Below, in pieces: positions 9,677 through 63,453 of a DNA stretch of 64,000 bases. The notes below the pieces were generated by a model that was not told the origin of the DNA, searched no databases, and was given only the letters and a program-made list of their open reading frames with translations. The stretch comes from an uncultured bacterium (GTDB lineage: Bacteria; Eisenbacteria; RBG-16-71-46; CAIMUX01; WJJG01), in contig CAZTDY010000005.1 in the NCBI GenBank assembly GCA_964612295.1, positions 70,666 through 134,665 of the forward strand, read 5' to 3'. The number at the start of each line of letters is the position of its first letter. Within the stretch, counting starts at the first letter, position 1. The translations under genes were made by a program, and so were the position numbers.

Positions 9677-9779
9677 GCTCTCAATCCATTCATCCAAGCG
9701 GCATTCCGACGATCTCAAGTGAGCATCGTAGCACGGTAGCGGAGACGGTCCCACATGTCCATGGAGTTGCCCCGGAGGG

Positions 9780-12022: not shown

Positions 12023-12076
12023 GTCATGTCTCCCTCTCAAAGGGTCCACCAGGTTTCCTGTTCACCCTTGGAGAGT

Positions 12077-15348: not shown

Positions 15349-15457
15349 CCTGCCTCGCCTGGGCGCCCTTTTCGAGGGTCACCGACCTACACGCGCAAAC
15401 CCCGCCGCCTTGCAGGGAGAGGCCTATACTGAGGACTGATTTCCGGGAGGAAAGATG

Positions 15458-15531
15458 TGGCGGCGCAGGGACTCGAACCCCGGACACGCGGATTATGATT
15501 CCGCTGCTCTAACCAACTGAGCTACGCCGCC
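15458..15531 (-). tRNA. tRNA-Met (anticodon CAU; elongator type or tRNA-Ile2 lysidine type)
   Basis: The reverse complement GGCGGCGUAGCUCAGUUGGUUAGAGCAGCGGAAUCAUAAUCCGCGUGUCCGGGGUUCGAGUCCCUGCGCCGCCA folds as a cloverleaf: 7-bp acceptor stem, D-arm AGCUCAGUUGGUUAGAGC, anticodon stem GCGGA/UCCGC with loop AUCAUAA, and T-arm GGUUCGAGUCC. G1-C72 is paired, so it is not an initiator. CCA is not encoded. Confidence 0.85.
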
Positions 15532-19021: not shown

Positions 19022-19509
19022 CGCTCCAGAAACTCCCTTTCTAACCGCTCGTCGTCCGTTCAAATGGTGCGGTTTCAGAATCCCGTTGACACTCAGCGGC
19101 CCTCAACTCATGCTCGTGATGCCGGGTTCTGGTGGGGAGATTCAGCAACGGCTGTGCCAGCAACGGCTGGCCGGCGGCGCCGGGTCGGGAGGGGTTCACG
19201 CAGCGACGCATCAGGCAACCTGCAGGCGCTCACAGGTTCGATCCCGGCTGGCGAACCGATCCATCCTGCTAAGATTCTGTCTTTGGCGGGGATGTGGCGA
19301 GTACCCTCGCGTCGTTTGGTGCATCGGCCCACCCGTTCTGCGCGCTCACTCCTCTCCCAAAACCGCCCTGCCAATTGGCCCGATTCGCGTGTGGTTTCAG
19401 GCAAACCGCCCATCCGGATCTGAGCGACCCAAGCCCGGGTCCTTGCAGACTGCATCCGTGGCCCCCCGGCCGCGTGCATTCTGCGGTAGGAGAGAGGGAG
19501 AGATCGGTC

Positions 19510-20676: not shown

Positions 20677-20689
20677 CGTCCAGGACAGG

Positions 20690-26694: not shown

Positions 26695-27157
26695 CCATGC
26701 GGGCCATCTAGTCGGCCGGTGGGATCTGTATCCCCGGCCTTTCCCGAAGGTCAGGGATGGACCCACAGGTCCACCCACCTTCCTTTCTGTCACGATGCCT
26801 CCCATGGTTCGTCCCTTAGCTCCCTGGACGACCAACATGAGTAGGGGCAGTCTACAGATCACACCGAAGGGTGCAAGTGTCCCTCTTGCACGGATTCGAA
26901 GCTCCGGTGCCGGGCACGGAGATGCGACGACCACATCGCGCAAGCTCGCATTATGCGCCCGCTCTTACCAGATAACCATCGGCCATTGAGGAACGGTCCC
27001 TTTGCCTGGCGCAATTTGACCAGGCGACCACTGCTGGGGTGGATGAGCCTGCCTCCGGCGCCGATTCCCTGTCTTGGAGGGCAGATTGAACACCGGCTGC
27101 GCTTACGGCTCGCATCGCCATTTCCACCCGGGGTTCGACGCCAAATCCGTAAACAGG

Positions 27158-43806: not shown

Positions 43807-45231
43807 ATGCGTGCACGCACTATCATGTCTCTGTTGGCCGTCCTAGCTCTCGCCATTCCGGCAGGAGCGGATGTGCTGATCAACGAGATCGACTGCGACA
43901 CCTCGGGAACCGATACACTCGAGTTCCTCGAGCTGTTCGGCGATCCGAACGCTCCCTTGGATGGAATGGTCCTGGTCCTGTACAACGGATCGGACGATGC
44001 ATCCTACAACGACGCCTTCGACCTCGATGGCTTCACCCTTGATGGAGACGGCTTCTTCCACATCGGTAATGTCGATGTGGTCCCGACGCCGGACATCATC
44101 ATCCCCAGCAACGGTATCCAGAACGGTCCCGATGCGGCTGCTCTGTACTACGGTGACGGCGTGGACTTCCCGAATGACACGCCCCTCACGCTCGACAATC
44201 TGATCGACGCCGTGGTCTATGGCACCAGCGATGGTGACGATCCCGAGCTGCTCGTCCTGCTTCTCGCCGGCCCCCAGGTCGATGAGAACCTGAACGGCAA
44301 CAAGGACTTCGAGTCCATCTTCCGTTGCCCCGACGGTGGCGGCGGCGCTCGCGTGACGACTGAATTCGCGGTTGGCGTCCCGACGCCTGGCGCGACCAAC
44401 GATCCGAGCTGTGGCGGTGGTCCCGAGCCGACCGACTACAACCTCTGCGATCTGCTTGAGCTGGACGCCCTGGGTGTTCCGGTCCTCGTGGGTGAGTATG
44501 TTCACGTCATCGAGCCGCTCCTCGTCCTGCAGGATTACGGCACGATTGCCACCGGCCGCATCGACAACGCTGCGACCGACGGCACCTGCTGCATCTACCT
44601 CTTCGATTACAACCAGGATCTGCCCCTCTACGAGGGTGATGAGCTGGACGTGATCGGCGTGGTGGACTTCTACAACGGCAAGACCGAGATCTCGGCTCTG
44701 GAGATCACGCTCCTCTCGTCGGGCAATCCGCTTCCGACGCCTGAGCTGATCACCACCGAAGAGCTCGCGGTCAACGGTGAGGACTATGAGTCCTGCCTGA
44801 TCCAGATCGACGATCTCGCGATCGTCGGCGGCGACTGGCCGCTCGAGGGCGACAGCGCCAACCTCGATGTTCAGGATGAGACGGCTGTCCCGACGGTCCT
44901 GCGCATCGACAGCGACACCGACATCGACGGCAGCCCCGCTCCCGTCGAGCCGTTCATCTGCACCGGGATCGCCGGCCAGTACGACTACAGCGAGCCTTAC
45001 GATGAGGGCTACCAGATTCTGCCTCGCAAGCTCGAGGATATTGAGGGCTTCGTGCCCCCGCCGACGCAGGCTTGCTGCTTCGACGACGGAAGCTGCCTGG
45101 AGCTGACCGCCGAGGACTGCGAAATTGCTGGTGGAGTCGTTTACGACGACGAATTCTGCGATCCGAACCCTTGCCCGCCCACGCCGGCCGACAATTCGAG
45201 CTGGGGCGAGATCAAGAGCCTGTATCGCTAG
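43807..45231 (+). CDS. Secreted lamin-tail-domain (LTD) protein with Cys-rich C-terminal module
   Basis: Signal peptide MRARTIMSLLAVLALAIPAGA. The LTD hallmark DVLINEIDCDTSG…LEFLELFG… and a second beta-sandwich-like region. The C-terminal 52 aa ACCFDDGSCLELTAEDCEIAGGVVYDDEFCDPNPCPPTPADNSSWGEIKSLYR. Confidence 0.75.
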   Translation: MRARTIMSLLAVLALAIPAGADVLINEIDCDTSGTDTLEFLELFGDPNAPLDGMVLVLYNGSDDASYNDAFDLDGFTLDGDGFFHIGNVDVVPTPDIIIPSNGIQNGPDAAALYYGDGVDFPNDTPLTLDNLIDAVVYGTSDGDDPELLVLLLAGPQVDENLNGNKDFESIFRCPDGGGGARVTTEFAVGVPTPGATNDPSCGGGPEPTDYNLCDLLELDALGVPVLVGEYVHVIEPLLVLQDYGTIATGRIDNAATDGTCCIYLFDYNQDLPLYEGDELDVIGVVDFYNGKTEISALEITLLSSGNPLPTPELITTEELAVNGEDYESCLIQIDDLAIVGGDWPLEGDSANLDVQDETAVPTVLRIDSDTDIDGSPAPVEPFICTGIAGQYDYSEPYDEGYQILPRKLEDIEGFVPPPTQACCFDDGSCLELTAEDCEIAGGVVYDDEFCDPNPCPPTPADNSSWGEIKSLYR

Positions 45232-49233: not shown

Positions 49234-49261
49234 TTGACCCTATCTAGTATTTTGCTAGAGT
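49234..49261 (+). promoter_or_regulatory. Sigma-70-like promoter (TTGACC-N16-TAGAGT) for the atp operon
   Basis: TTGACC at 49234-49239 and TAGAGT at 49256-49261, ~25 nt upstream of the atpZ-like start. Confidence 0.45.
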
Positions 49262-49283: not shown

Positions 49284-49544
49284 GTGGTCAGAGGGGGGGT
49301 GCCGATGTCCGGTTCCAAGGATTCGAAGTATCGCTCTGCACGAGTGGTATCACAGCTTGGATTAATCCCCCTTATATTGGCCGTTTCGCCCTTGGTGGGT
49401 TTCGGCATGGGGTACCTGCTGGACCAGTGGCTCGGCACCGGGCAGGTTCTGCGATTGGTCTTCTTAGGGCTCGGGTTCATCGCCGGGGTCCGAGAGATGA
49501 TTCGTCTCTTGAGGAGAGCTCAGAAGGATGTCGATCGGCTTTGA
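49284..49544 (+). CDS. AtpZ/AtpI-family small membrane protein (F-ATPase-associated)
   Basis: 86 aa with two TM helices (…LGLIPLILAVSPLVGFGMGYLLDQWLGTGQVLRLVFLGLGFIAG…). First gene of the atp cluster. Confidence 0.65.
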   Translation: MVRGGVPMSGSKDSKYRSARVVSQLGLIPLILAVSPLVGFGMGYLLDQWLGTGQVLRLVFLGLGFIAGVREMIRLLRRAQKDVDRL

Positions 49545-49598: not shown

Positions 49599-50087
49599 AT
49601 GAACCAAGCTGCGGCCCCGGAGTTCGGGGTGCGCTCTCCATCGGAGCCGGTGAAGCTTTTCTCGGGACCGCGGTCGGAGACCATCCGCCGCATCCTGATC
49701 ACCACCGCGTGGCTTGGCGCGCTGGTGGCGCTCGTCGCCTGGGTTTACTTCGGGTGGCCCTGGGCGCTGGGCTTTGCGGGCGGGACCTTGATCGGCATGG
49801 CCAATATCTTCTTCCTCTCCCTCCTGTCCCAGATGATCCTGACGACCGGCGAACGGAACAAGGGCGCGATCGCGGCAGTGGTGGCGCTCAAGATCCTTGT
49901 TGTATACGGAGGCCTGGCGGCCCTCCTGCTCTGGCACCTGCCGTCCGCCCTATCGGTGGTGGCCGGGTTTTCCGTGGTGCTGTTGGTGATCGTCCTCAAG
50001 GCCGCAGGGCGGGCCATGTTGGACGCGGGCCTCTTCGGGCGAGGAGCAACCTCTGATCACACGGGGGAAGAGAATGGGCAGTCCTAA
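49599..50087 (+). CDS. atpI: ATP synthase protein I-like membrane protein
   Basis: 162 aa with 4 TM helices, directly preceding atpB and overlapping it by 14 nt. Confidence 0.55.
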   Translation: MNQAAAPEFGVRSPSEPVKLFSGPRSETIRRILITTAWLGALVALVAWVYFGWPWALGFAGGTLIGMANIFFLSLLSQMILTTGERNKGAIAAVVALKILVVYGGLAALLLWHLPSALSVVAGFSVVLLVIVLKAAGRAMLDAGLFGRGATSDHTGEENGQS

Positions 50088-51123
50088 GGTGGCGGTGGCC
50101 TCGATGTCCCGGGGCATTCTCTGGAGTATCCTCTGTCTGGCCCTCTCGCTGGGGTTTGCCGGGGGAGCATTCGCCTCTGATGATCACGATGCCCACGGCG
50201 TGACCGCTGCACACGACGAGCATGGCGAGCACGAGGCCCACGGCGCAACCGCTGCACACGACGAGCACGATGCCCACGATGAACACGGCGAACACGAGGC
50301 GCACCCCGAGTTACCCAACTTCGTGCATCTCATCTACAAACAAGTCGCGAAGGAGGGGGCGCCCCCCGAATGGGCCAAGATCATGCTTCGCTTCCAGGAT
50401 GTCATCTTTGCGATCCTGGTCGCGATCATCATTGTCGTCATCGTCAGGCTGGGCACGCGCCACATGAAGATGATTCCCGGCCCGCTCCAGAACGTGGTCG
50501 AATTCTTCGTCGACGGTTTCCGCAGCTTCATTCTGGGCATCCTGGGTCCCGGCGGGGAGCAGTACGTACCTTTCCTCGGCTCGCTGTTCCTCTACATCTG
50601 GTTCATGAACTTGTTCGGCCTCGTGCCGCTGATGCGTTCGCCGACCTCCGCGCTCAACACGACCGGCGCACTGGCGGTGAGCGTCTTCCTATATGTGCAG
50701 TACACGGGACTGCGCCGTTTGGGCCCGGTGAAGTTCTTCCTTCACCTGGCGGGCGATCCGAAGGATGTCGTCGGCTGGTGCCTCGTCCCGCTCATGCTGC
50801 CCTTGCACATCATCGGGGAGTTCGCCAAGCCGGTCAGCCTCTCGCTGCGACTCTTCGGGAACATCCTTGGCGAGGATGTGCTGATCGGGGTCTTTGCCGG
50901 GATGGGCGTCGCGCTCTTGGCCTTCGCCAAGCTCCCGATCGGGATTCCGCTGCACCTGCCCTTCATCATGCTGGCGCTCCTGATGAGCACCGTTCAAGCG
51001 CTCGTGTTCACCCTGCTGAGCACGACCTACATCATGCAGGTGCTGCCCCACGATGAGCATGACGAGGATGAGGCGCCGGCGGACGAGGGCCCCGTGGCCT
51101 CCGCCGCGCAGGGCGCACACTAG
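50074..51123 (+). CDS. atpB: F0 ATP synthase subunit a with signal peptide and His/Asp/Glu-rich N-terminal extension
   Basis: Conserved C-terminal region LSLRLFGNILGEDVLIGVFAG…LLMSTVQALVFTLLSTTYI. The N-terminus has a signal-like helix (ILWSILCLALSLGFAGGAFA), then SDDHDAHGVTAAHDEHGEHEAHGATAAHDEHDAHDEHGEHEAH. Confidence 0.9.
   Translation: MGSPKVAVASMSRGILWSILCLALSLGFAGGAFASDDHDAHGVTAAHDEHGEHEAHGATAAHDEHDAHDEHGEHEAHPELPNFVHLIYKQVAKEGAPPEWAKIMLRFQDVIFAILVAIIIVVIVRLGTRHMKMIPGPLQNVVEFFVDGFRSFILGILGPGGEQYVPFLGSLFLYIWFMNLFGLVPLMRSPTSALNTTGALAVSVFLYVQYTGLRRLGPVKFFLHLAGDPKDVVGWCLVPLMLPLHIIGEFAKPVSLSLRLFGNILGEDVLIGVFAGMGVALLAFAKLPIGIPLHLPFIMLALLMSTVQALVFTLLSTTYIMQVLPHDEHDEDEAPADEGPVASAAQGAH
50195..50310 (+). 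repeat. Tandem ~36-nt coding repeat encoding the His-rich AHG(V/A)TAAHDEH…GEHEAH units inside atpB
   Basis: The unit gcccacggcg[tg/ca]accgctgcacacgacgagca is repeated with a further partial copy. Confidence 0.55.
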
Positions 51124-51199: not shown

Positions 51200-51430
51200 A
51201 TGGATGCTGGGACTGCCCTAGGATTTGCCCTTCCGGTGGGTCTGGGACTCGCGGCCGTGGGGTCTGGTTTGGGTCTCGGTCGCGCGGTGGGGGGCGCCAT
51301 GGAAGCCATGGGGCGTCAACCCGAAGCGGCGGGCAAGATTCAGACGGCGATGATCATCGGCGCGGCCTTCATTGAGGCCCTGACGATCTACGCCTTCGTT
51401 AGCATCTTCGTGCTCTCCGGGAAAATGTAG
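51200..51430 (+). CDS. atpE: F0 ATP synthase subunit c
   Basis: 76-aa two-helix hairpin [54 protein letters not shown] with the conserved ion-binding Glu. Confidence 0.9.
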
Positions 51431-51521: not shown

Positions 51522-52016
51522 GTGCAATTGATTGATCTAAGTGTCCTGATCACCCACGTCATCGCATTCGTGATCGTGCTCTGGATCCTGCGCCGCTTTG
51601 CCTGGGGACCCGTACTCGGCTTCCTCGAGGCGCGCCGCGAAAAGATCGCCGCTGAATTCAGCGAGATCGATCATCAGCGCGCAGAGGTGGCGACGCTGAA
51701 GGCGGAGTACGAGGATCACCTGCGCAACATCGAATCGGAAGCGCGCGCGCGCGTTCAGGAGGCGGTGGCCGAAGGCAATGCCGCCGCGGACCGCATCAAG
51801 GAACGCGCCCAGGAGGAGCGGCAGCAGCGACTCGCTCGCGCGGAGGAGGAGGTCAAGCTTCTCGAGGAAGCTTCGGCCGAAAACCTGCGCAGGAACACGG
51901 TCGATCTGGCGCTTCGAGCGGCGGAGAAGGCGGTGCAGGAGCGGCTCGACGATGAGAAACATCGCGAGATGATGACGCGGTTCCTCGACGATCTTGAACG
52001 CGCCGAGGGACAGTAG
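51522..52016 (+). CDS. atpF: F0 ATP synthase subunit b
   Basis: A single N-terminal TM followed by a long charged coiled coil (…RREKIAAEFSEIDHQRAEVATLKAEYEDHL…). Confidence 0.85.
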   Translation: MQLIDLSVLITHVIAFVIVLWILRRFAWGPVLGFLEARREKIAAEFSEIDHQRAEVATLKAEYEDHLRNIESEARARVQEAVAEGNAAADRIKERAQEERQQRLARAEEEVKLLEEASAENLRRNTVDLALRAAEKAVQERLDDEKHREMMTRFLDDLERAEGQ

Positions 52017-52089: not shown

Positions 52090-52641
52090 ATGATTCGTGA
52101 GCCTGTGGCCAGACGATATGCGCGAGCCCTTTTCGAGGCCTCTCGAGATCGGAAGATCCTGGATGAGGTGGCGGGCGATCTGGAAAGCATCAAGCTGCTG
52201 CTCACGCAGCAGCCTGAGCTGGATCGACTGCTGACTGCGCCCCAGATCGAACAGAAGGCCAAGAAGAGCGTGGTCGGCGAGGTCTTCACGGATCGCGTGC
52301 ATCCCATTGTCCTGGAGCTGCTCTATCTGCTGATGGACAAGAAACGTCTGGTGGTGTTGACCCAGATTATCGAGGGGTATCGCGATCTGCTCGAGGCACG
52401 GCGGGGTATCGCGCGGGCCGAGGTGACGACGGCGGTTCCGCTGCCGGAAGGGCAGGAGCAGCGGCTCAAGGAGAAGCTCGAAGCCCTCACGGGGCAGACG
52501 ATCCTCTTAGAGAAGCGCGTCCTGCCGGCCATCTTAGGCGGCATGATGGTGCGCCTTGGTGATCAGATTATCGATCGGAGCATACGGCGTACGTTCGAAG
52601 AGATGCGACAGCAACTCGGCGAAGTACCGGTCTACGAGTAA
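52090..52641 (+). CDS. atpH: F1 ATP synthase subunit delta (OSCP)
   Basis: MIREPVARRYARALFEASRD… is the OSCP family N-terminus. 183 aa. Confidence 0.85.
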   Translation: MIREPVARRYARALFEASRDRKILDEVAGDLESIKLLLTQQPELDRLLTAPQIEQKAKKSVVGEVFTDRVHPIVLELLYLLMDKKRLVVLTQIIEGYRDLLEARRGIARAEVTTAVPLPEGQEQRLKEKLEALTGQTILLEKRVLPAILGGMMVRLGDQIIDRSIRRTFEEMRQQLGEVPVYE

Positions 52642-52686: not shown

Positions 52687-54252
52687 ATGGGATTCAAGCC
52701 TGAAGAAGTCAGTTCGGTATTGCGCAAGGAGCTGGAGAAGTATGAGACCCAGCTCGAGATGGCCTCGGTGGGCCAGGTCCTGCAGGTGGGAGACGGGATC
52801 GCGCGCGTGTGGGGGCTTCAGGAGGCCATGGCGGGCGAGCTGCTCGAGTTCCCCGGCAATGTCGTGGGCATGGTCCTCAACCTGGAAGAGGACAATGTCG
52901 GTGTGGTGCTCTTTGGCTCCGACGAGCTGATCAAAGAGGGCGACATGGTGCGCCGAACCGGCAAGCTGGCCAGCGTGCCGGTGGGCAAGGGCGTGATCGG
53001 CCGGGTTGTCAATCCGCTCGGTGAACCCTTAGACGGCAAGGGCGAGGTCGTGTTCGAGGAGGAGAGCCCCCTCGAGGCCGTGGCGCCCACCGTTGTGGAA
53101 CGCCAGCCCGTGAATCAGCCGGTCCAGACCGGCCTCAAGGCGATCGACTCGATGATCCCGATCGGCCGCGGGCAGCGCGAGCTGATCATCGGGGACCGCC
53201 AGACAGGCAAGACCGCCCTGGCGATCGACACGATCCTCAATCAGAAGAACTCCGACATCATCTGCATCTACGTCGCCATCGGTCAGAAGGAATCGACCGT
53301 GGCCCAGGTGGTCAAGACGCTCGAGAACTACGGCGCCATGGAGTACACCACCGTGGTGAATGCGAGTGCCTCGCAGCCGGCTCCTCTGCAGTACATCGCT
53401 CCCTACGCCGGCTGCGCGATGGGCGAGTACTTCCGCGATCGCGGCCAGCACGTCGTCTGCATCTACGATGACCTGTCGAAGCAGGCCGTGGCCTACCGGC
53501 AGCTCTCGCTCCTCTTGCGCCGCCCGCCGGGTCGCGAAGCCTATCCGGGTGACATCTTCTATCTTCACAGCCGTCTACTCGAGCGGGCCGCCAAGCTCAG
53601 CGACGAGAAGGGCGGGGGCAGTCTGACCGCGCTGCCGATCATTGAAACCCAGGCCGGCGATGTCTCAGCCTACATTCCCACCAACGTCATCTCGATTACC
53701 GACGGACAGATCTTCCTGGAGAGCGACCTCTTCTATGCCGGAATCCGTCCCGGTATCAACGTCGGTATTTCGGTGTCGCGAGTTGGTGGTAAAGCCCAGG
53801 CCAAGGCGATGCGTAGGGTGGCGGGCCGCCTGCGTCTCGACCTCGCGCAGTATCGTGAGCTCCAGGCCTTCGCCCAGTTCGGTTCCGATCTGGACGAGGC
53901 CACTCAGCGGCAGCTTCTGCGCGGCGAACGGATGACCGAGATTCTCAAGCAGGGCCAGTATGAGCCCCTGTCACTCGAAGACCAGGTCATGATCATCTAT
54001 GCTGGGGTGGGCGGCCTCTTGGACACGCTTCCGGTGGAGAGCCTGCATCGCTTCGAGAAAGAGTTCCTCGCGCACATGCACGAGAAGAATCCCGACGTCC
54101 CCAACGCCATCAAGGAGGAGGGGAGCATCTCGGAGAAGACCGAAACGGCGCTGAGGGGTGACATCGAGCAGTTCGTTGCTTCCTTCGACGCCGATGTTGA
54201 AGTCAGAGCCAAAGAGGCGCGAGAGGCGGCTGCAGCCCAGGCGGCGCGGTAG
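52687..54252 (+). CDS. atpA: F1 ATP synthase subunit alpha
   Basis: P-loop [18 protein letters not shown] and [32 protein letters not shown]. Confidence 0.95.
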
Positions 54253-54281
54253 ATTGCCGGACAAGAGGCGGGATTGAACTG

Positions 54282-55397
54282 ATGCGTAGGGTTGTTCTGG
54301 TCATAGTGCTGCTGCTCCTTCTGGGAGCCGGCTACGTGGGCACGAAGAAATTCGTGACCTACGCGCACGCCTATACCGGAACGACCTTCAATGCAGCAAG
54401 CCTCGAAGGCTCCGAGCCTGGCTACTTCTATCTCGACTGGCGGGGCGATCTGTCTCCTGAAGCGGTGAGCGGCCTGCTCGATGCGAACGGCCTGCTCGAC
54501 TTCGGGGATGCCGAGTCGTTTAGAGACCGCACCTACCGGGACCCGCTGCGCGTCATTCAGGCTTGCCTGGGGCTGCACGATCAGCTCCTGACCTCCCCCG
54601 ATCCGGAACTGGAGACCCTTCTCCGGCGGCAGGTCGACTGGCTTTTGGATGAGGCCATGCTGGAGCTTCCGGGCGATATCCCCGTCTGGCCGCAGTACTA
54701 TCGCTTCGATCGCTACGGGCTCACCGCTCCCTGGATTTCGGCTCTCACGCAGGGGCAGGCCATCAGCCTTCTCGTCCGCATGGCCGTCCTGACGGGCGAA
54801 GAGCGCTACGCGGAGCACGCCTTCCAGGCCACGCTCGCGTTCACGACAGAGGGCTGCCCGATTGTCTGGCGCGGAGAAGACGGGCTCTTCTTCGAGGAAT
54901 ATCCCTGCGATCCGCCTTCACACGTGCTCAACGGGTGCCTGTTTGCCTGGTTGGGGTTGTGGGATTGGGCCCGCTATCAAGGGGACCAAGGCTACCGTCA
55001 ATACTGCCTCGATTGCCTTGAGCAGATCGAGCAGAGGGTCCCGGAGTTCGAACTCGGCAACTGGACCCGCTACGACGTCCTGCAAGAGCGCCCCACCAGC
55101 CCGACCTATCAGGAGATTCACGCTGCGTTGGCCGAGGCGCTCGAGGCGATCACCGAGAAGCCCTTCTGGGCCGATCGTGCTCACCGTTGGCGCGGGGCGG
55201 CTGACGATAGGCTGGTGCGAAGCCGCGTGTTTTTCGAAGTGCTGGTCAATCGCATTTCCGAGAAGATCCTCGGGCGCCCCCAGCCCGAGGGACGGGGACT
55301 CAAGAACGTCCGGCTTCTCCAGACGCAAGCCGGTCGGCCAATCCTGCTCGATGATCGGGCGCATACCCTATCCGGACGCAGAAGGGAGATCGCGTAG
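54282..55397 (+). CDS. D-glucuronyl C5-epimerase-like domain protein with N-terminal membrane anchor, inserted inside the atp operon
   Basis: N-terminal TM (MRRVVLVIVLLLLLGAGYVG). …PWISALTQGQAISLLVRMAVLTGEERYAEHAFQATLAFT…FFEEYPCDPPSHVLNGCLFAWLGLWDWARY…NWTRYDV… parallels the C-terminal domain of eukaryotic/bacterial glucuronyl C5-epimerases (…[21 protein letters not shown]…[26 protein letters not shown]…). Its stop is 1 nt before the atpG start. Confidence 0.7.
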   Translation: MRRVVLVIVLLLLLGAGYVGTKKFVTYAHAYTGTTFNAASLEGSEPGYFYLDWRGDLSPEAVSGLLDANGLLDFGDAESFRDRTYRDPLRVIQACLGLHDQLLTSPDPELETLLRRQVDWLLDEAMLELPGDIPVWPQYYRFDRYGLTAPWISALTQGQAISLLVRMAVLTGEERYAEHAFQATLAFTTEGCPIVWRGEDGLFFEEYPCDPPSHVLNGCLFAWLGLWDWARYQGDQGYRQYCLDCLEQIEQRVPEFELGNWTRYDVLQERPTSPTYQEIHAALAEALEAITEKPFWADRAHRWRGAADDRLVRSRVFFEVLVNRISEKILGRPQPEGRGLKNVRLLQTQAGRPILLDDRAHTLSGRRREIA

Positions 55398-57685
<2,288 letters not shown>

Positions 57686-57695: not shown

Positions 57696-58115
57696 ATGGA
57701 AGCAACCCATCAGGTCGTACTGCTGACCCCGGAGAGGACCCTCCTGGAAACGGAGATCGCCAGTCTGGTCGCCCCCGGGTCCGAAGGATTCCTCGGAATC
57801 CTGGCTCATCATGCTCCTCTGATCACCGGCCTGAAGCCCGGGCCCGTGACCTTGACCCTTCCGGGAGGTCGCAAGGAGGTGTACTCTGTCAGCGGCGGCT
57901 TCCTCGAGGTTTCGAACAACCGAACGGTAATCCTGGCGGATGCCGCCGAACGGCCGGAGGAGATCGACCTGAGCCGGGCCGAAGCCGCGCGGGATCGCGC
58001 CAAGGACCGCCTGGAGCGCCGCACGCCGGAGTTGGATGCAGCCCGCGCAGAAGCGGCCCTGGCCCGGGCGCTCAATCGGGTCTACGTTGCGAGGACCTTC
58101 GTAGGAAGCCTGTAA
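57696..58115 (+). CDS. atpC: F1 ATP synthase subunit epsilon
   Basis: 139 aa with a beta-sandwich N-terminal domain and helical C-terminus (…VSGGFLEVSNNRTVILADAAERPEEID…). Confidence 0.85.
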   Translation: MEATHQVVLLTPERTLLETEIASLVAPGSEGFLGILAHHAPLITGLKPGPVTLTLPGGRKEVYSVSGGFLEVSNNRTVILADAAERPEEIDLSRAEAARDRAKDRLERRTPELDAARAEAALARALNRVYVARTFVGSL

Positions 58116-58170: not shown

Positions 58171-59406
58171 ATGCCCGACCCTCAAAGCTCACCGACAACC
58201 CTCGACCTTCTTGTTCGCTTGCTCCGCTGGCGCCGTCTGATTCTGATCAACACGCTTGTTGTGGCCGTCGCGGCGGTGGTGATCAGTCTCCTGCTCCCGA
58301 ACTGGTATGAGGCCGAGGTGAGCCTCCTGCCCCCGAAGGACGAACTCGGCATGTTGGGCGGAGCGCTGGGGGGCCTGGCCGGCTCGATGGGAGGCGGCAG
58401 TTCCGCCCTGGCCACGCTGTCTGCAAGCTATAACCTCCCTCTCTGGTCTTCTCCCTCGGATCTTCTGGTCGGTGTTCTTCGCAGTCGCCGGCTTCGCGAA
58501 GCGGTCGCGCGGGAACATGAGCTGGCCGAGGTGTACAAGGTCGAGAATATCGACCAGGTCCTGCTGGCGATGCGCGAGCGGATCAAGACCGGCGCGAGGA
58601 TCAACGGCATCGTCTGGATGAAGGTTCTCGACAAGGAACCGGAACGGGCGGCCGCGATCGCTCAGTCCTGTCTCGATCACTTAGACACCATTCAGCGCGA
58701 GACCAACCGCAGCCGTGCAGCGGCAGTCCGGCAGTTCATCGAGCAGCGGTTGGCGGCGACCGAGCAGGGCCTGGGAGCGGCCGAGGATTCCCTGCAGGCG
58801 TTCCAGGAGCGGCACGGCCTGCTGGCCCCTGAGGAGCAGACCCGCGCTCTGGTCGAAACGATTGCCGGCGTGGAGGCCCAGCGCCTGGCTGCGGTCGTGG
58901 AACGGGACGCGCTTCTCGCACAGGTGGGGGCCGATCATCCCGAGGTGAAACGATATCAGGCGCTCGTCACCTCCCTGGAAGAGGCAAGGGCCTCTCTCGA
59001 GGGAGACTGGTCCCGGGCGGCGAGGGGAGGCCCCTCGGCGATCATCGGGCTCGATCAGCTGCCCTCGCTCACCTTTGAGTTCCTGCGCCGCTATCGCGAA
59101 GCGGAGATCCAGGCCGCCGTCTTCGAACTGCTGACCCAGCTCCATGAGCAGTATCGTATCCAGGAAGTCCGGGATCTGCCGACGATTCAGGTGCTCGATC
59201 CGCCCGTCGCTCCGCTGGAAAAGGCGCGGCCCCATCGCGCGGTGATCTGCGTGATTGCCACGCTGCTCGCCTTTTTTGTCAGCCTCCTCGTGGCCTGGCA
59301 ACTCGATCGCGCGGCACAACTGGCGGAACGTAGTCCAGGTCAGTACGCGCAACTCGAGCGTCTGCTCTCCGGTGTCGGCCTGCGGTTCATCCTCCCGCGG
59401 AGGTAG
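58171..59406 (+). CDS. Polysaccharide co-polymerase (Wzz/chain-length determinant) family protein, no kinase domain
   Basis: An N-terminal TM after LVRLLRWRRLILINTLVVAVAAVVISLLLPNWYEAEVSLLP (Wzz-type start), a long periplasmic coiled-coil region, and a C-terminal TM (AVICVIATLLAFFVSLLVAW). Confidence 0.7.
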   Translation: MPDPQSSPTTLDLLVRLLRWRRLILINTLVVAVAAVVISLLLPNWYEAEVSLLPPKDELGMLGGALGGLAGSMGGGSSALATLSASYNLPLWSSPSDLLVGVLRSRRLREAVAREHELAEVYKVENIDQVLLAMRERIKTGARINGIVWMKVLDKEPERAAAIAQSCLDHLDTIQRETNRSRAAAVRQFIEQRLAATEQGLGAAEDSLQAFQERHGLLAPEEQTRALVETIAGVEAQRLAAVVERDALLAQVGADHPEVKRYQALVTSLEEARASLEGDWSRAARGGPSAIIGLDQLPSLTFEFLRRYREAEIQAAVFELLTQLHEQYRIQEVRDLPTIQVLDPPVAPLEKARPHRAVICVIATLLAFFVSLLVAWQLDRAAQLAERSPGQYAQLERLLSGVGLRFILPRR

Positions 59407-59408: not shown

Positions 59409-60917
59409 ATGAACGCCGCCGCGGTCGCCAATCTGCCGCAGCGCGGATTCTGGTTGTCGGTTCTGTTTGCTGACCTCCTGATCCTTCTGCTCTTGCCCAA
59501 GGTCACCCTCTTGGTTCTGGTCGCGGCGATCCTCCTGCTCGTTCTGGGCGGTCTGAGACGTCCCGAGTGGATCCTGGCATTCATGCTGACCGGAACACCG
59601 CTGCTCGGTGCACTGCCTCCCCATTCGATCTCAGGCAGCGTGTTGATCTACGGGCTTCGACTCATGTTCGTGATCGGGCTGATCTGGGGGCTCCGGCAGG
59701 TTCGCCTGGGCAGTGGGGGCACAGGGTTCGGCATCGGATCCGTGGCCGGTCCGGTCCTTCGCGACAGCCGCACGTGGATTGCCATCGGACTGCTGGTCGT
59801 GCTCTGGGTCGGATTGCAGGCCACCCCTTCGCCACACTATGGGAGCGGGAAGACGGTCTCGTTCCTCCTGCTGCCGGTCTTCCTCTACCTCGCCGGAGCG
59901 CTCATGTGGCCGCTTTGGTCTACGCCCGGCCACCTGAATCGCCTCTTGCGCGTTTCTGTCGTTCTGGGGGGGGTGGTGGCAGCCTGCGGTTTGGCGGCTG
60001 CGTTGGGGGCAGACCATGAGTTTCTCCGGGCCAACCAGGGCGGGGGACTGTATCGCGGCGGTGGGCGACTGGCCTGGTTAGGGTCGAACGTGATCTGGAT
60101 GGCGCGCATCCTCGCGGTCTGGATGGTGCTGCTACTCTGGGCGGCCTCGAGAAACGTCGTGCGACCGGCAGTCGCAGTCCTGCTGGTCGTGGCCGGACTC
60201 TATCTCATGCTGCGCACCGGATCTCGCGGGCCACTTCTGGCGTTGCTGCTCTCACCTTCGGGGCTGCTGCTATTGCCGAAGAGACCGAAGCCGGCGGCTC
60301 CGGAAGTCACGCCCGGCCGATCACGTCGCTCGCGAACCTGGGGACTGGCCGTCGCGGTGGTGCTACTGGCGGTGGGTGCGCTCGCTCTGACGACGCCCGA
60401 ACAAAAGGCCACGCTGACCCAGGCCGTCGGACGGGGGACGTTCGGTACAATGCTCCAGGTGGTGGGCATCGACACGGCTTCTCTGGGAGGCGGACAGCTG
60501 GCCGCGGCAGACCCGTCCGCCAACTTCAGGCTGCAAATCGCACAAGGCGGTCTGGAGCAGATGCGCGAGGGTCTGCCCTGGGGCCACGGCACGGGCGCAT
60601 TCTCAACCGTCCTTTTTGGTCGGGACTTCCGGATCTATCCCCACAATGCCTTTGTTGAAGTTCTCTTCGAGAACGGCTTGCCAGGCTTGCTGCTCCTGCT
60701 CCTGTTCATTCTCCTCTCCTGGCGCGGTGCCATCCGGCTTTCGCGTCACACACCCGCCGCCCGCTGGCTGTGGGTGTTGCTGATGATGGCGCTCATCAAC
60801 GCTCAGGTCAGCGGAGATCTGCCGGCCAACGAGCTGATCTGGTTCTGGGGCGGGATGATCGTGGCCTTGCAGATCGCCGCGCACCGCCGGCTGCTCCAAG
60901 CGTCGCACGCAGGATAG
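59409..60917 (+). CDS. O-antigen ligase / Wzy_C-domain polymerase-like membrane protein
   Basis: About 11 TM helices, with a large periplasmic loop carrying the Wzy_C/WaaL-like motif GHGTGAFSTVLFGRDFRIYPHNAFVEVLFENGLPGLLL. Confidence 0.7.
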   Translation: MNAAAVANLPQRGFWLSVLFADLLILLLLPKVTLLVLVAAILLLVLGGLRRPEWILAFMLTGTPLLGALPPHSISGSVLIYGLRLMFVIGLIWGLRQVRLGSGGTGFGIGSVAGPVLRDSRTWIAIGLLVVLWVGLQATPSPHYGSGKTVSFLLLPVFLYLAGALMWPLWSTPGHLNRLLRVSVVLGGVVAACGLAAALGADHEFLRANQGGGLYRGGGRLAWLGSNVIWMARILAVWMVLLLWAASRNVVRPAVAVLLVVAGLYLMLRTGSRGPLLALLLSPSGLLLLPKRPKPAAPEVTPGRSRRSRTWGLAVAVVLLAVGALALTTPEQKATLTQAVGRGTFGTMLQVVGIDTASLGGGQLAAADPSANFRLQIAQGGLEQMREGLPWGHGTGAFSTVLFGRDFRIYPHNAFVEVLFENGLPGLLLLLLFILLSWRGAIRLSRHTPAARWLWVLLMMALINAQVSGDLPANELIWFWGGMIVALQIAAHRRLLQASHAG

Positions 60918-60920: not shown

Positions 60921-62393
60921 GTGGTCATGGGGAATCGGGTCGCAGCAGAGTCGCCACCAGCCCAGCCCAAGTGGGCGGGATTGATTCTGGTGGGTGCCAC
61001 CCTGCTGATTGCCTTCGGACTACTCGATTCGATCGCTCGTTTCCCTCGCGGACTGCTGACCGACGACGCCTACTTCTACGCCAAGATCGCATCGAACCTG
61101 GCGCGCGAAGGCCTCGCATCGTTCGATGGAATTCATCCGACGGACGGCACCCATTTGCTGTGGACCTGGGTCCTGGCCGGCGTCTCCTGGCTCATGTTTC
61201 GTCTGACGACGGACAGCGGAGTTCATCTCTCTGCGATGATCGCGGCCTACCTCTTGCTCGCCGCCTGGATTGGAATGCGCTTCGGGCGCTCGCTCGCCTG
61301 GGCCATCGTCCTCTTTCTGCTCAGCGTCATTTTCAAGATGCTCATGGAGACGACGCTGCTGGCCTTTCTTCTGCTGATCCTGAGCGACGAACTGCTCTGG
61401 CGCCCTTCGCGAGGCAGGCGGGGGTGGTGGAAACTCATCCTCTGCGCACTCCTGGTACCGCTCGTGAGGATCGATGCGCTCTTCATGCCGATGCTTCTCG
61501 CAGTGGGAGCTCTGATCGCCCGGAGAGATCAGCATAGCGGTTGGCTGGTGGGGGCCTCGTCGACCCTGGGAGGCGGGCTTCAGCTCATCGCCAACCATGC
61601 GATCAGTGGGCACTGGACATCGGTATCCGCCCAGATCAAAGCCGCGCCCCTGGCGATCGGGCAGAACCTGGCAGCCAATCTGACCGGCCTCTACTGGGGC
61701 GGGATGCTCTCATTCGGGCTGTTTGTCCTGGCTCTCCTCTTTGCGTTCCTGCGTGCGCGGCGCCAAACGCGCCATGATCTGCGATGGGGGAGTTACGCCG
61801 CGCTCGCGACAGCCAGCGCCTTCGTTGTGGCGCATCTGCTGCTGAACAGCTGCATGCGCTATTGGTACTACGTGCCGGCCCTCTATCTGGTCCTTCAGAC
61901 GGTCATCGCGTTGTCCTCGGGCCGAAGAGGTTCCGATCTGAAGACCTTCTCGCGGGTGCTCGCGGTGGTCCTCATCACTGGGCTGATCGCCAAGTACGCG
62001 GTGGACAGTCACCTTCGGGCCCGCGAGATCGATCATTCGAGACACTTCGTTACGGAGGTCAAACGCCTGGTTCCTCCAGACGCCCCTGTGTTCCAGATCG
62101 ACGGGACCGGCTATGTCGGATACTTCACGGGGCGCACGATCATCAACGGGGACGGCCTAGCCAACACGCACGCGTTCGCACGGCGATTGCGCGAGAACGG
62201 TTTGGCTGGATATCTCGAAGAGAACGGTATCCGGTATCTGGTCCACAGTACCTATCCGGTTCAGGACAGGTTGCTTTCACATCATGGTCTCGTCGTGCGC
62301 TCAGAAGATGTGGAGGTGCTGGTGACTCCGCCTGCGGGGCTCGCCCGGCATACCGCCTTTGGGTTGTATAAGCTCAACGGGGAAGCGCCCTAA
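60921..62393 (+). CDS. GT-C-fold-like integral membrane glycosyltransferase candidate
   Basis: Multi-TM protein with an early periplasmic DDAYFY motif (DxD/DExxY-like, as in ArnT/PMT/GT39-83 families) after TM1. Confidence 0.45.
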   Translation: MVMGNRVAAESPPAQPKWAGLILVGATLLIAFGLLDSIARFPRGLLTDDAYFYAKIASNLAREGLASFDGIHPTDGTHLLWTWVLAGVSWLMFRLTTDSGVHLSAMIAAYLLLAAWIGMRFGRSLAWAIVLFLLSVIFKMLMETTLLAFLLLILSDELLWRPSRGRRGWWKLILCALLVPLVRIDALFMPMLLAVGALIARRDQHSGWLVGASSTLGGGLQLIANHAISGHWTSVSAQIKAAPLAIGQNLAANLTGLYWGGMLSFGLFVLALLFAFLRARRQTRHDLRWGSYAALATASAFVVAHLLLNSCMRYWYYVPALYLVLQTVIALSSGRRGSDLKTFSRVLAVVLITGLIAKYAVDSHLRAREIDHSRHFVTEVKRLVPPDAPVFQIDGTGYVGYFTGRTIINGDGLANTHAFARRLRENGLAGYLEENGIRYLVHSTYPVQDRLLSHHGLVVRSEDVEVLVTPPAGLARHTAFGLYKLNGEAP

Positions 62394-62442
62394 ATCGTGC
62401 GCCGGGGGGTGTCGGAATAGGCCGGGCCGACTATCCTTGCTG

Positions 62443-62487
62443 GTGAGAGAGAACATACTGTGACATTGACGGCCGTTGCTCTCTCAC
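62443..62487 (+). promoter_or_regulatory. Stem-loop (9-bp GTGAGAGAG/CTCTCTCAC arms, 27-nt loop) immediately upstream of the RBS of the 62501 gene
   Basis: Perfect inverted repeat ending 6 nt before GGGAGGAAGCC-ATG. It may be an attenuator or operator, or may occlude the RBS. Confidence 0.3.
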
Positions 62488-62500
62488 GCGGGAGGAAGCC

Positions 62501-63301
62501 ATGCGCATCACCGGTCTACTTCTAGGAATACTCCTCTTCACGCTCACCCCGGGCCAGGTCAGATCGGATCCCGACGATCTCTTCGCAGGCTATCTGATCA
62601 CCCATGCCCCAGCCGACTTCGTCTACTCAGCGGGCATGGATTGGTGCTCATCATACGGCGAGTACGGTATCTCCCATACTGCGGAGCAGATCGTGACAAT
62701 GCCGATTACGGCCGATCCCCTGAACCCCACACTGTTCTTCGTCGTGGCAGCGTTTGAGGAGGACAAAACGTGGTGTGCAACGGAATTCGGATTCTCCGCT
62801 GACTTCAACGGGCTGTTCTATTTCACCGAAAGCGGCCCCTGTCTGGCGCACAACCTCGAGAACGCGACCGATGGGTGGCCGGGCCCTGGCGAGGGAACCG
62901 CTGTCGTGGCAACCGATGTCCAATGGGAAGGCAACCTCCTTCCCGTGTATTTCTTCATCGGGTACACCTACTACGAGAGCCTGATCTCTCTCGACGTGGA
63001 TCCTGCCATGGACTTCGCGGGATTCGGCAATTGCGAACTTCCCTCCACGACTTTCGACGCCGTCTGTCTGGGGGCCATGGGGGTGGGCATGGACGGCCAT
63101 ATGTGCGGTGGCCCCGGTCCGGTATATGGCGCCTGCTGCGTGGATGGGGAACCCTGTGACTACGTCGTTGAAGACGACTGCACGGAGGTCGGAGCGACCT
63201 TCTTTCCCCACACGAGTTGCGACCCCGACCCCTGCGTCACCCCGGCAGTCAAGGCACCCAGCTGGGGCTGGGTCAAAGCGAAGTACCGTCCGACGCGATA
63301 G
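62501..63301 (+). CDS. Secreted protein with Cys-rich C-terminal module (paralog-like to 2600..3484 product)
   Basis: Signal peptide MRITGLLLGILLFTLTPGQVRS. The C-terminal 56 aa ACCVDGEPCDYVVEDDCTEVGATFFPHTSCDPDPCVTPAVKAPSWGWVKAKYRPTR. Confidence 0.75.
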   Translation: MRITGLLLGILLFTLTPGQVRSDPDDLFAGYLITHAPADFVYSAGMDWCSSYGEYGISHTAEQIVTMPITADPLNPTLFFVVAAFEEDKTWCATEFGFSADFNGLFYFTESGPCLAHNLENATDGWPGPGEGTAVVATDVQWEGNLLPVYFFIGYTYYESLISLDVDPAMDFAGFGNCELPSTTFDAVCLGAMGVGMDGHMCGGPGPVYGACCVDGEPCDYVVEDDCTEVGATFFPHTSCDPDPCVTPAVKAPSWGWVKAKYRPTR

Positions 63302-63453
63302 AGGCCGCCTTCGAAATGAGGACCTGAAGCGCTTGGGCCCACCTCACCCGAAGATGCCCGTGGCAAGATCAAACGCTAGGGGATAGACTGCAGCTCTGAT
63401 CGTCTGATGATCGGAAGCCAATGCTTATGTGACCGGGGGGGCAGGACACGAGC

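Follow-up and report, generated by a model that had tools for sequence, protein, structure and literature searches.

A 371-aa member of the PF06662 (GlcE-type C5-epimerase) family is encoded between atpA and atpG in the F1Fo ATP synthase operon of an uncultured bacterium of the Eisenbacteria, within the 64,000-nucleotide stretch of DNA analysed here (the window). The atpA-epimerase-atpG order is a real inherited oddity and not an artefact, and the gene is intact and under purifying selection. Our preferred reading, to which we assign a probability of roughly 60%, is that the gene encodes a periplasmic glycan uronate epimerase that entered the operon by a single insertion, is co-transcribed with the atp genes, is translationally coupled to atpG and acts as a partner of the glycan genes located downstream.

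The operon and the genes that follow it comprise these features:

49234..49261, + strand: promoter-like site (TTGACC-16-TAGAGT, with TG) upstream of atpZ, candidate operon promoter by consensus match only
49284..49544, + strand: atpZ (PF09527 ATPase_gene1, E=1.6e-11)
49599..50087, + strand: atpI-like gene (PF03899, 23.6 bits, just below the 25.1-bit cutoff)
50074..51123, + strand: atpB, subunit a, with an N-terminal extension of ~110 aa (PF00119, E=3.5e-52, match from residue 111)
51200..51430, + strand: atpE, subunit c (Pfam match)
51522..52016, + strand: atpF, subunit b (Pfam match)
52090..52641, + strand: atpH, delta/OSCP (Pfam match)
52687..54252, + strand: atpA, alpha (PF00006, E=5.7e-84, with matches to the N- and C-terminal domains too)
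54282..55397, + strand: PF06662 (GlcE-type C5-epimerase family) gene, 371 aa, ATG start, TAG stop
55398..56255, + strand: atpG, gamma (PF00231, E=7e-94)
56273..57685, + strand: atpD, beta (Pfam match)
57696..58115, + strand: atpC, epsilon (Pfam match)
58171..59406, + strand: Wzz/GNVR polysaccharide co-polymerase (Wzz 31.8 bits, cutoff 25.5; GNVR 28.1 bits, cutoff 27.7)
59409..60917, + strand: Wzy_C-domain protein, O-antigen polymerase/ligase family (PF04932, E=2.2e-14, 53.9 bits, cutoff 31.7)
60921..62393, + strand: polytopic membrane protein with a GT-C glycosyltransferase fold (Foldseek)

All eight F1Fo structural genes (a, c, b, delta, alpha, gamma, beta and epsilon) are ordered on one strand with short spacers, as in the canonical atpIBEFHAGDC operon. 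Together with atpZ and the atpI-like gene, whose position is also occupied by a gene in relatives, they bear out the description of an operon that is canonical apart from its insert. Two features set it apart from the canonical arrangement: a gene of 1.1 kb with no relation to ATP synthase parts atpA from atpG, and beyond atpC, where no terminator was detected, the cluster runs on into the genes for the Wzz, Wzy_C and GT-C-fold proteins. The scan that retrieved the candidate operon promoter found three promoter-like consensus sites against 2.1 expected. Few gene orders in bacteria are as stable as the adjacency of atpA and atpG. Extra reading frames are on record in atp operons, an unidentified ORF in Rhodopseudomonas blastica being one example; such insertions are rare, not unprecedented. 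Literature searches retrieved nothing relevant on known insertions between atpA and atpG, and only ecological surveys on Eisenbacteria.

Within and around the inserted gene the following features were located:

54253..54281, + strand: atpA-epimerase spacer of 29 nt, with the purine-rich Shine-Dalgarno-like sequence AAGAGGCGGGA
54285..54365, + strand: N-terminal signal-anchor helix, residues 2-28 (helix in the AF2 model; predicted N-in, with the catalytic domain periplasmic)
54897..55109, + strand: active-site stretch, from the alignment to 4pw2_A
54897-54899, + strand: E206, equivalent to human GlcE E499
54900-54902, + strand: Y207, equivalent to human GlcE Y500
54930-54932, + strand: N217, equivalent to human GlcE N510
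55071-55073, + strand: Y264, equivalent to human GlcE Y560
55107-55109, + strand: Y276, equivalent to human GlcE Y578
55299..55397, + strand: C-terminal tail, ~residues 340-371 (pLDDT 36-63), of varying length and sequence between lineages
55381..55397, + strand: last epimerase codons (R-R-E-I-A-stop), which hold GAAGGGAG, the Shine-Dalgarno sequence of atpG, located 9 nt before its ATG

The reading frame and both flanking genes were thus confirmed as originally predicted. The atpG ATG directly follows the epimerase TAG (gap of 0 nt), so the abutment stood, and the spacer on the atpA side, previously given as 30 nt, was corrected to 29 nt. GC content and GC3 of the gene (GC3 = 0.77) are on par with those of its neighbours, and no direct or inverted repeats beyond chance and no insertion scars were found at the two junctions; recent horizontal acquisition is without support from these data. 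Comparison with a 92%-identical ortholog gave a dN/dS of 0.16, within the range of the atp genes (0.04-0.26) and equal to that of wzy (0.16). The source is a metagenome assembly of an uncultured organism, which would leave room for a chimeric contig or a decaying pseudogene. However, the identical protein was found on 12 contigs from four sources (NCBI, JGI, Logan and ENA), the longest of 135 kb, protein P0001 was read on 18 contigs, and the same gene order recurs in independent assemblies of five diverged lineages. A chimera, the outcome that would have undone the original prediction, is ruled out by these observations, and with the intact, selected reading frame the chance of any artefact is negligible.

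The search against PF06662 proposed with the original prediction was run and gave a clear match to this domain (C5-epim_C; 114.4 bits vs a 23.3-bit cutoff, E=6e-33) over residues 135-304, covering profile positions 6-187 of 188, in agreement with the predicted similarity to the C-terminal domain of glucuronyl C5-epimerases. Zebrafish and human GlcE were retrieved by phmmer at E=3e-15 to 2e-13. The AF2 model of the protein is an alpha-helical barrel (pLDDT 92.9, pTM 0.91), and the best eight matches of this model in the Foldseek PDB search were GlcE structures (among them 6I02, 6I01, 4PXQ, 6HZZ and 4PW2), with E~2e-10 over 215 columns, rmsd of 2.9-3.8 A and 27-29% identity; AGE-family 2-epimerases came next, at only E~1e-4. 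The alignment is confined to the GlcE C-terminal domain, with a target-normalised TM-score of 0.34. All five catalytic residues of GlcE (E499, Y500, N510, Y560 and Y578, as listed in PMC13308652) are kept in the aligned window protein. Among 44 relatives E206, N217, Y264 and Y276 are invariant, and position 207, the Y500 equivalent, is Tyr or Phe; Phe is found in about half of the family, some embedded copies included, so details of the chemistry may vary. The subfamily of the window protein is small and centred on Eisenbacteria, comprising 15 of 3,282 related 50%-identity clusters at E<=1e-30.

Comparison with animal GlcE (GLCE; 4PW2, 4PXQ, 6HZZ, 6I01 and 6I02) shows that the helical PF06662 catalytic domain and the five catalytic residues are common to both proteins. 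Animal GlcE is a type II Golgi membrane protein, and its single N-terminal anchor and non-cytoplasmic catalytic domain are also predicted for the window protein. On the other hand, animal GlcE is longer (~585-617 aa vs 371 aa), has no atp-operon setting and carries N-terminal beta-hairpin and beta-barrel domains, involved in the dimer and the substrate cleft, that are absent from the window protein, which consists of a transmembrane helix, a linker of ~60 residues and the helical domain. Since these beta domains are absent, the overlap spans 215 columns and the TM-score is 0.34, substrate specificity is not transferable from GlcE. The designation D-glucuronyl C5-epimerase, as originally given, holds at the level of the PF06662, GlcE-type family and is to be read as a family assignment. 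N-sulfated heparosan is not an obvious substrate, because neither a heparosan synthase nor a sulfotransferase was found in the 64-kb window. By analogy with GlcE, the enzyme would most likely invert C5 of a hexuronic acid residue in a glycan, converting GlcA to IdoA or acting on a related uronate.

The prokaryotic PF06662 candidates described by Raedts et al. 2011 (PMC3068255) have the same domain, an N-terminal signal or anchor, a length of ~300-400 aa and surface-polysaccharide genes nearby, as does the window protein. The described prokaryotic PF06662 members lie in O-antigen- or capsule-type clusters with glycosyltransferases, and none has been reported in an atp operon. The enzyme of Bermanella marisrubri RED65, the sole characterised bacterial PF06662 enzyme in the account of Raedts 2013 given in PMC13308652, is likened to the window protein by description. 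The archaeal Agl32 of Halobacterium salinarum is, like the window protein, a prokaryotic single-domain alpha-helical epimerase, and the IdoA it forms is part of a surface glycan. The GlcE catalytic residues, all five present in the window protein, are missing from Agl32, for which another mechanism is thought likely (PMC13308652). The same logic as proposed here, C5-epimerisation of polymer uronates outside the cytoplasm during export, applies to periplasmic polymer-level enzymes such as AlgG in alginate synthesis. AlgG is encoded in the alginate operon and is a right-handed beta-helix, a fold unrelated to PF06662.

The membrane anchor noted originally was recovered as the sole hydrophobic segment of the protein (~residues 1-27), coinciding with the helix modelled at residues 2-28. 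Such an anchor is present in 37 of the 44 relatives, 29 of which follow the positive-inside rule for N-in, with more K/R residues before the anchor than after it; the charge bias of the window protein itself is weak (2 K/R before vs 1 after). These sequence features suggest an N-in orientation with a non-cytoplasmic catalytic domain. The protein would thus be a functional GlcE-family enzyme anchored in the inner membrane and facing the periplasm, and it would act on the chain, or on its lipid-linked repeat unit, after transfer to the outer side of that membrane.

To assess the expression of the gene, the region was scanned for regulatory signals. The consensus scan from atpA to atpC revealed no promoter-like site, and the terminator scan of the same region returned a single, weak match within the epimerase ORF. 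This candidate (55215-55228) was rejected, as it has a weak 5-bp stem whose folding is no better than that of shuffled sequences (z=0.40). No terminator or promoter was found in the 54253..54281 spacer, which folds like shuffles (z=0.47), and there was no structured RNA at the junctions, where folds matched those of shuffled controls (z=0.06-0.5). The only Rfam match in the window is a tRNA located elsewhere. Co-transcription had been called almost certain; the lack of promoters, the weak terminator match, the unstructured junctions and the conserved abutment favour it, and we would place it at that lower strength, with the epimerase probably read from the atp operon transcript.

The junction with atpG is conserved beyond the window. 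Stop and start abut without any gap (0 nt) in four lineages, where the final epimerase codons keep the Shine-Dalgarno sequence, and AGGGAGATNGCNTAG-ATG is kept in the window, L006, L001 and L012; L002 has a 21-nt spacer before atpG, with its own Shine-Dalgarno sequence. In most lineages, the epimerase frame appears to have been extended until its stop touched the atpG start, with its last codons supplying the atpG ribosome-binding site. Because these codons would serve as the ribosome-binding site and the stop touches the start, we infer that translation of atpG is coupled to that of the epimerase.

Inspection of related genomes, as the original prediction had recommended, revealed the atpA-epimerase-atpG arrangement also in L006/L007, L001, L002, L012 and L017, that is, in at least five diverged Eisenbacteria lineages. 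The claim that the position is highly unusual was borne out: of 79 further PF06662 loci retrieved from metagenomes, none lies near atp genes, and atpA adjoins atpG in sister Eisenbacteria operons and in the Zixibacteria outgroup. The same adjacency is seen in L013 and L014, which lie inside or beside the insertion-bearing radiation, and L098 is an Eisenbacteria atp operon without adjacent glycan genes. The embedded epimerases group into a single clade (96% bootstrap) that also takes in four close homologs found on short contigs; the embedded copies have diverged to ~60% identity, with saturated dS between lineages (>1). These data are consistent with one entry into the atpA-atpG junction, in the ancestor of one Eisenbacteria subgroup, and with vertical inheritance of the embedded gene ever since. 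The insertion-bearing genomes did not form a clade in the species trees (1.3-1.6% of bootstraps), which were NJ trees of two and six proteins with a support of 25-78%, varying with the data, for the nodes of L002, L013 and L014; as these nodes are weak, one loss or more, or recombination, may need assuming. The source may plausibly have been a glycan locus already adjoining the atp operon, from which the gene would have made a short-range move. Relocation of this kind is plausible and not more, since the epimerase tree, at deep nodes that carry no support values, places P0029 and P0009, not the L016 and L097 copies, nearest the embedded clade.

The glycan genes described as starting directly after atpC were found there. 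The Wzz gene begins 55 nt after atpC, with no terminator found in the gap, and thus the co-polymerase (Wzz/PCP) and the Wzy_C protein of a Wzx/Wzy-type locus are both present. The third protein (d3, 60921..62393) had no Pfam or NCBIfam match; its best 22 Foldseek PDB matches were all GT-C proteins (STT3, ArnT, DPY19, AftB, ALG12 and PglB), with E-values down to 6.6e-6 and TM-scores of ~0.5, and its residues D48 and D49, after TM1, are invariant. Modelling thus suggests that it is a GT-C member at the fold level only. It shares the GT-C fold alone, without BLAST-level similarity, with the PMT_2 genes beside distant PF06662 homologs, so a relationship with these was discarded, and a 596-aa protein of L016, considered as a homolog, matches a putative metalloprotease/FlgD_ig-type family instead. 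The search of the window (47 long ORFs across 64 kb, nearly all scanned against Pfam) revealed no ugd, no Pfam-matched glycosyltransferase beyond the GT-C protein, no flippase and no priming transferase; the missing genes of the pathway may lie elsewhere in the genome.

The association of this locus with atp genes extends to relatives. In a wider Eisenbacteria group, every one of the eight lineages with a locus reaching beyond atpC has orthologs of Wzz and Wzy_C after that gene (the window, L006, L001, L002, L013, L014, L015 and L016), with gaps or overlaps as small as 0-13 nt, and Wzz orthologs follow atpC in eight loci other than the window (L001, L002, L006, L007 and L013-L016). In the deeper lineages L016 and L097, a PF06662 gene lies a few kb past the orthologous Wzy gene. 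Other PF06662 homologs are found in polysaccharide loci or adjoining PMT_2 GT-C genes, and the neighbourhoods reported by Raedts et al. 2011 (PMC3068255) agree with this polysaccharide context. A Poly_export relic within the atp operon of L015 indicates that DNA of this glycan locus entered atp operons more than once. The proposed link between a surface-glycan pathway and the atp operon is strengthened by the atpC-Wzz-Wzy_C order in eight lineages and by the PF06662 genes past Wzy in two. Against the preferred reading, the window lacks further uronate-pathway genes. The epimerase probably modifies the same glycan on which the Wzz, Wzy_C and GT-C proteins act. A more far-reaching version of this link, in which a single expression unit running from atpZ to the GT-C gene (~14 genes) keeps glycan proteins in fixed proportion to ATP synthase, gamma is made by termination-reinitiation and energy-glycan coupling is the selected trait, we regard as unlikely.

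It is possible, if rather doubtful, that the enzyme works but its position is meaningless, a chance insertion having been fixed in a small, fast-radiating lineage while the protein serves a pathway encoded elsewhere. The L013 and L014 operons suggest that lineages can do without the insert and that some may have lost it. Outside the embedded group, the closest homologs in the tree are from unrelated settings; no further uronate-pathway genes were found in the window, and L098 shows that Eisenbacteria manage without glycan genes beside the atp operon. On such an account, the abutment of stop and start merely restores atpG translation. However, the position has been held through the divergence and dS saturation described above, the placement of the Shine-Dalgarno sequence in the epimerase tail has been refined and conserved, and Wzz/Wzy orthologs recur directly after atpC in eight sampled lineages, two of which have a PF06662 gene within that locus or a little beyond it.

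Two further explanations bear on what the protein does. The same fold might perform other chemistry: within the alpha/alpha-barrel superfamily, the protein could be a lyase of uronate polymers, a hydrolase or a module that binds glycans without catalysis; the absence of the GlcE beta domains with only ~215 residues superposed, the Phe at the Y500 equivalent in half of the family and the presence of polysaccharide lyases, GH76/GH105 hydrolases and 2-epimerases among the lower Foldseek matches all leave room for it, and a single bacterial PF06662 enzyme has been assayed so far (PMC13308652). That enzyme, however, is a GlcA C5-epimerase according to Raedts 2013 as cited there, GlcE structures precede all other folds, with E-values some six orders of magnitude lower, and the four invariant residues, with Y207 kept in the window protein, make a change of chemistry improbable. 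Even less probable, to the point of being very hard to sustain, is the recruitment of the gene as an ATP-synthase factor, either a translational throttle that lowers the gamma:alpha ratio through TAG-ATG termination-reinitiation or a membrane assembly factor. Its location at the exact boundary between 3-copy and 1-copy subunits, its stop abutting the atpG start and a Shine-Dalgarno sequence in the conserved last four codons of an otherwise variable tail would fit such a role, but purifying selection acts on the entire barrel and its catalytic residues, beyond the needs of a simple spacer, the catalytic domain is predicted in the periplasm, away from F1, L002 keeps its spacer and separate Shine-Dalgarno sequence, and sister lineages do without the gene. 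Altogether, we favour the periplasmic glycan uronate epimerase described at the outset.

The operon variant is new, and the enzyme family was already known. A selected break between atpA and atpG would constitute a natural experiment on how a stoichiometry-sensitive operon tolerates a foreign coding sequence and on the means by which the following gene regains its translation, here apparently the extension of the epimerase frame. If the linkage with the glycan genes is only historical, the arrangement is a well-documented curiosity of gene order. The compact version of GlcE, an anchor plus a barrel, is a candidate minimal uronate C5-epimerase, and the locus hints at a surface glycan of this uncultured phylum that awaits study, with Wzz/Wzy genes bound to the atp operon in an unusual way.

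The 371-codon open reading frame at 54282..55397 (+), with an ATG start and a TAG stop, matched PF06662 (D-glucuronyl C5-epimerase C-terminus) over nearly the full profile (E=6e-33, 114 bits vs a 23-bit cutoff), which confirmed the family assigned to it in the original prediction. Strong Pfam matches likewise bore out the predicted neighbours, with atpZ, an atpI-like gene, atpB, atpE, atpF, atpH, and atpA upstream and atpG, atpD, and atpC downstream. The epimerase ATG follows the atpA stop codon after 29 nt, and its TAG directly abuts the atpG ATG. A spacer of 55 nt, in which no T-run or significant hairpin was found, separates atpC from three genes:

58171..59406, Wzz/GNVR co-polymerase, first gene 3' of atpC
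59409..60917, Wzy_C protein, second gene 3' of atpC
60921..62393 (+), 490-aa polytopic protein, third gene 3' of atpC

The subunit a encoded by atpB is unusually long in the window (349 aa; 50074-51123, +) and in two relatives, L016 (406 aa; 5518-6738) and L098 (504 aa; 5517-7031). The Pfam match of the window protein starts only at residue 111, and its gene overlaps the preceding atpI-like ORF by 14 nt.

A phmmer search of PDB sequences with the epimerase retrieved only the zebrafish and human D-glucuronyl C5-epimerases (GlcE; E=3e-15 to 2e-13). In the AlphaFold model, which was built with 44 relatives as input and was confident (pLDDT 92.9, pTM 0.91), a helix spans residues 2-28; after a short mixed linker, an alpha-helical barrel runs up to residue ~330, and the tail beyond it is of low confidence. 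Foldseek ranked eight GlcE chains first (E~2e-10, 215 columns, ~3 A rmsd, 27-29% identity), followed at only E~1e-4 or weaker by AGE-superfamily 2-epimerases, lyases, and GH76/GH105 enzymes. PMC13308652, citing Debarnot 2019, gives E499, Y500, N510, Y560, and Y578 as the catalytic residues of human GlcE; all five are kept in the window protein, where they align with E206, Y207, N217, Y264, and Y276. In the alignment of the 44 relatives, E206, N217, Y264, Y276, and H280 are invariant. At residue 207 (window 54900-54902), equivalent to GlcE Tyr500, 20 of them have Tyr and 21 have Phe; it is the only one of the five catalytic positions to vary, even within the atp-embedded clade. This variation may point to a mechanism that differs from that of animal GlcE. 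The window epimerase has neither the beta-hairpin nor the beta-barrel domain of animal GlcE. Although not orthologous to heparan-sulfate GlcE, the protein belongs to the PF06662 family and probably shares the GlcE mechanism. Its sole hydrophobic segment is N-terminal. Such an anchor is present in 37/44 relatives, and because Lys and Arg are more frequent before than after it in 29 of these 37, the protein is predicted to be oriented N-in, with its catalytic domain in the periplasm, the charge bias of the window protein itself being weak.

Almost all relatives of the epimerase came from Candidatus Eisenbacteria MAGs, and the atpA-PF06662-atpG order recurred in related genomes, as follows.

Loci with the order atpA-PF06662-atpG
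Window
L006, L007, L017: epimerase identity 92%
L001: epimerase identity 64%
L012: epimerase identity 63%
L002: epimerase identity 62%

No embedded PF06662 gene was present in five other Eisenbacteria operons (L013, L014, L015, L016, L098) or in the Zixibacteria operon L099, in which 3-38 nt separate atpA from atpG. When metagenome contigs were scanned by pattern, 80 PF06662 loci (24-92% identity) were retrieved, and an atp gene lay beside PF06662 only in L017, a fragment that belongs to the species group of the window; the value of 0/79 for the other loci overstates the thoroughness of sampling, as many contigs are short. An exhaustive profile-free search returned 3,282 related 50%-identity clusters, 15 of them at E<=1e-30. 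The PF06662-related superfamily is therefore large, and the subfamily of the window epimerase is small.

The exact epimerase sequence was found on 12 contigs from NCBI, JGI, Logan, and ENA, the longest of 135 kb, and the exact AtpG sequence on 10. In addition, 18 contigs carried a 92%-identical ortholog (P0001), in an identical layout from atpZ through the GT-C gene. These observations effectively refute an artefactual arrangement. The GC3 of the gene (0.77) falls among those of its neighbours (0.73-0.83), its base composition also matches, and no repeat scars were found flanking it. Its dN/dS against the 92% ortholog was 0.16, the same as for wzy, with atp genes at 0.04-0.26. The epimerase gene is intact, of native composition, and under purifying selection.

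In a neighbour-joining tree of 24 epimerases, five embedded copies and four close homologs from short contigs formed one clade (96% bootstrap), which indicates that the gene was inserted once and then inherited vertically. Two species trees, one of AtpA plus AtpG and one of six concatenated proteins (2,024 columns), grouped the window, L006, L001, and L012 firmly, and both placed the insert-bearing L002 and the insert-free L013 and L014 in a radiation of unresolved branching. Since the insertion-bearers were monophyletic in <2% of replicates, either the insert would have been deleted later in the L013/L014 lineage or lineages, or the resolution of these simple trees is too low. In L016, Wzy_C is followed by Poly_export, a 596-aa protein, a nitroreductase on the other strand, and then a PF06662 gene (49% identical) 6.8 kb beyond atpC; L097 carries this same block (59-65% identical), whose PF06662 gene is 56% identical to the window protein. 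The family thus adjoined the atp operon before one copy came inside. A short-range relocation would be a plausible route, and is a hypothesis because the L016 and L097 copies do not come out in the epimerase tree as the nearest outgroup of the embedded clade.

The glycan locus predicted after atpC has a wider distribution. Wzz and Wzy_C orthologs (40-92% identity) lie directly 3' of atpC in L001, L002, L006, L007, L013, L014, L015, L016, and the window, L012 being left out of the count as its contig ends within atpD. L016 marks the far end of this range (AtpG 55% identical). The atpC and wzz genes overlap by 13 nt in L016, abut in L015 (0 nt), and lie 4 nt apart in L013; neither L098 nor L099 has the pair after atpC. 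This linkage predates the epimerase insertion and is more widely distributed, and it is perhaps the more general peculiarity. In L015 (GCA_030629055), the atpD-atpC gap is unusually long (257 nt) and contains a ~30-nt imperfect direct repeat and an inverted 45-codon relic of Poly_export (L015:8378-8512, -), with 58% identity to residues 141-185 of the Wza-like Poly_export of L016 (E=2e-10). The relic is independent evidence of traffic between the atp operon and the glycan locus, and suggests repeated rearrangement between them. Among more distant PF06662 homologs, that of L008 belongs to an ordinary polysaccharide cluster, and those of L009/L010 and L003/L011 have PMT_2 GT-C genes as neighbours, in agreement with the prokaryotic neighbourhoods described by Raedts et al. 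(PMC3068255).

Neither Pfam nor NCBIfam matched the 490-aa protein, for which only 12 homologs were found among 5.8 billion proteins. The top 22 PDB folds matching its model (pLDDT 84, built from these homologs) were all GT-C glycosyltransferases (STT3, ArnT, DPY19, AftB, ALG12, PglB), and an Asp-Asp pair after TM1 is invariant. The GT-C call of the original prediction is supported at the fold level, this fold being confidently predicted, and the protein looks like an undescribed GT-C family.

Scanning of the + strand from atpA to atpC revealed neither a promoter-like site nor a convincing terminator; a weak terminator hit inside the epimerase ORF (55215-55228) folded no better than shuffled sequence. 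No significant RNA structure was detected at either epimerase junction or in the atpC-wzz spacer (z=0.06-0.5). The most telling expression feature is the 3' end of the epimerase. In the window, L006, L001, L012, and two short-contig homologs (P0002, P0004), the C-terminal tail varies freely in length and sequence, and its end is constant, R-E-(I/M)-(A/V)-stop. In the first four, the last codons read AGGGAGATNGCNTAG immediately before ATG, so the atpG Shine-Dalgarno sequence is contained within the epimerase, 9 nt 5' of the atpG start. The early-branching L002 epimerase stops ~20-30 codons sooner, keeping a 21-nt spacer with its own GAGAGG, and its close homolog P0006 ends equally early. On the simplest reading, the frame subsequently grew through the spacer as far as the start of atpG, which would produce classic stop-start translational coupling of atpG to the epimerase.

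Further downstream, GC drops to 0.58-0.60 (62200-63400), and a doubtful 266-aa ORF (62501-63301) without a family match contains the top terminator-like hairpin of the + strand (62923-62946), which has a 9-bp stem and a T-rich tail. This hairpin may be the true end of a long atp-glycan transcript.

Elsewhere in the window, an IS66-family transposase fragment (14533-15531, -), matched only by the C-terminal ~47 residues of the domain, adjoins the single tRNA, tRNA-Met(CAT) (15457-15531), and is perhaps what is left of a mobile element that inserted at a tRNA gene. About 45 kb from the epimerase, a 729-aa protein (7691-9880, -) carries Sulfatase and SGSH_C (N-sulphoglucosamine sulphohydrolase C-terminal) domains after an N-terminal region of ~250 aa. 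There are also two Omp85-family genes (10286-12049, -; 25324-26943, -) and several long high-GC3 ORFs (285-560 aa) without Pfam match at E<=1e-4 (within 18206-21760, 23645-25327, 30664-32046, and 43807-45231).

Altogether, we favour, with a probability of about 0.6, a membrane-anchored, periplasm-facing uronate C5-epimerase that would act on the glycan that the neighbouring Wzz, Wzy_C, and GT-C proteins handle, and that would have been fixed once inside the atp operon, co-transcribed with it and translationally coupled to atpG. The weak points of this explanation are the missing GlcE beta domains, the Tyr/Phe alternation at 207, and the lack in the window of genes for ugd, a flippase, a priming transferase, or a cytoplasmic glycosyltransferase. 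A neutral passenger whose position carries no functional meaning is a less likely alternative. That the same fold performs another chemistry is unlikely, given residue 207 on one side and the kept catalytic residues on the other. A recruited factor for ATP-synthase expression or assembly, considered beside both the atpG junction and the GlcE-like active site, is very unlikely.

The PF06662 enzyme family was already known, as were its occurrence in prokaryotes and its link with surface-glycan loci. Extra ORFs occur inside the atp operons of other bacteria, so an insertion as such is rare but not unprecedented. The new elements are the conserved, selected separation of atpA from atpG by the gene of a glycan enzyme, an atpG ribosome-binding site that forms part of the last codons of the insert, and the linkage of Wzz and Wzy to atpC across part of Eisenbacteria; a non-exhaustive literature search found no published description of any of them. 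In this uncultured lineage, the embedded epimerase, whose function is putative, represents a well-supported gene-order curiosity and provides a testable coupling hypothesis.
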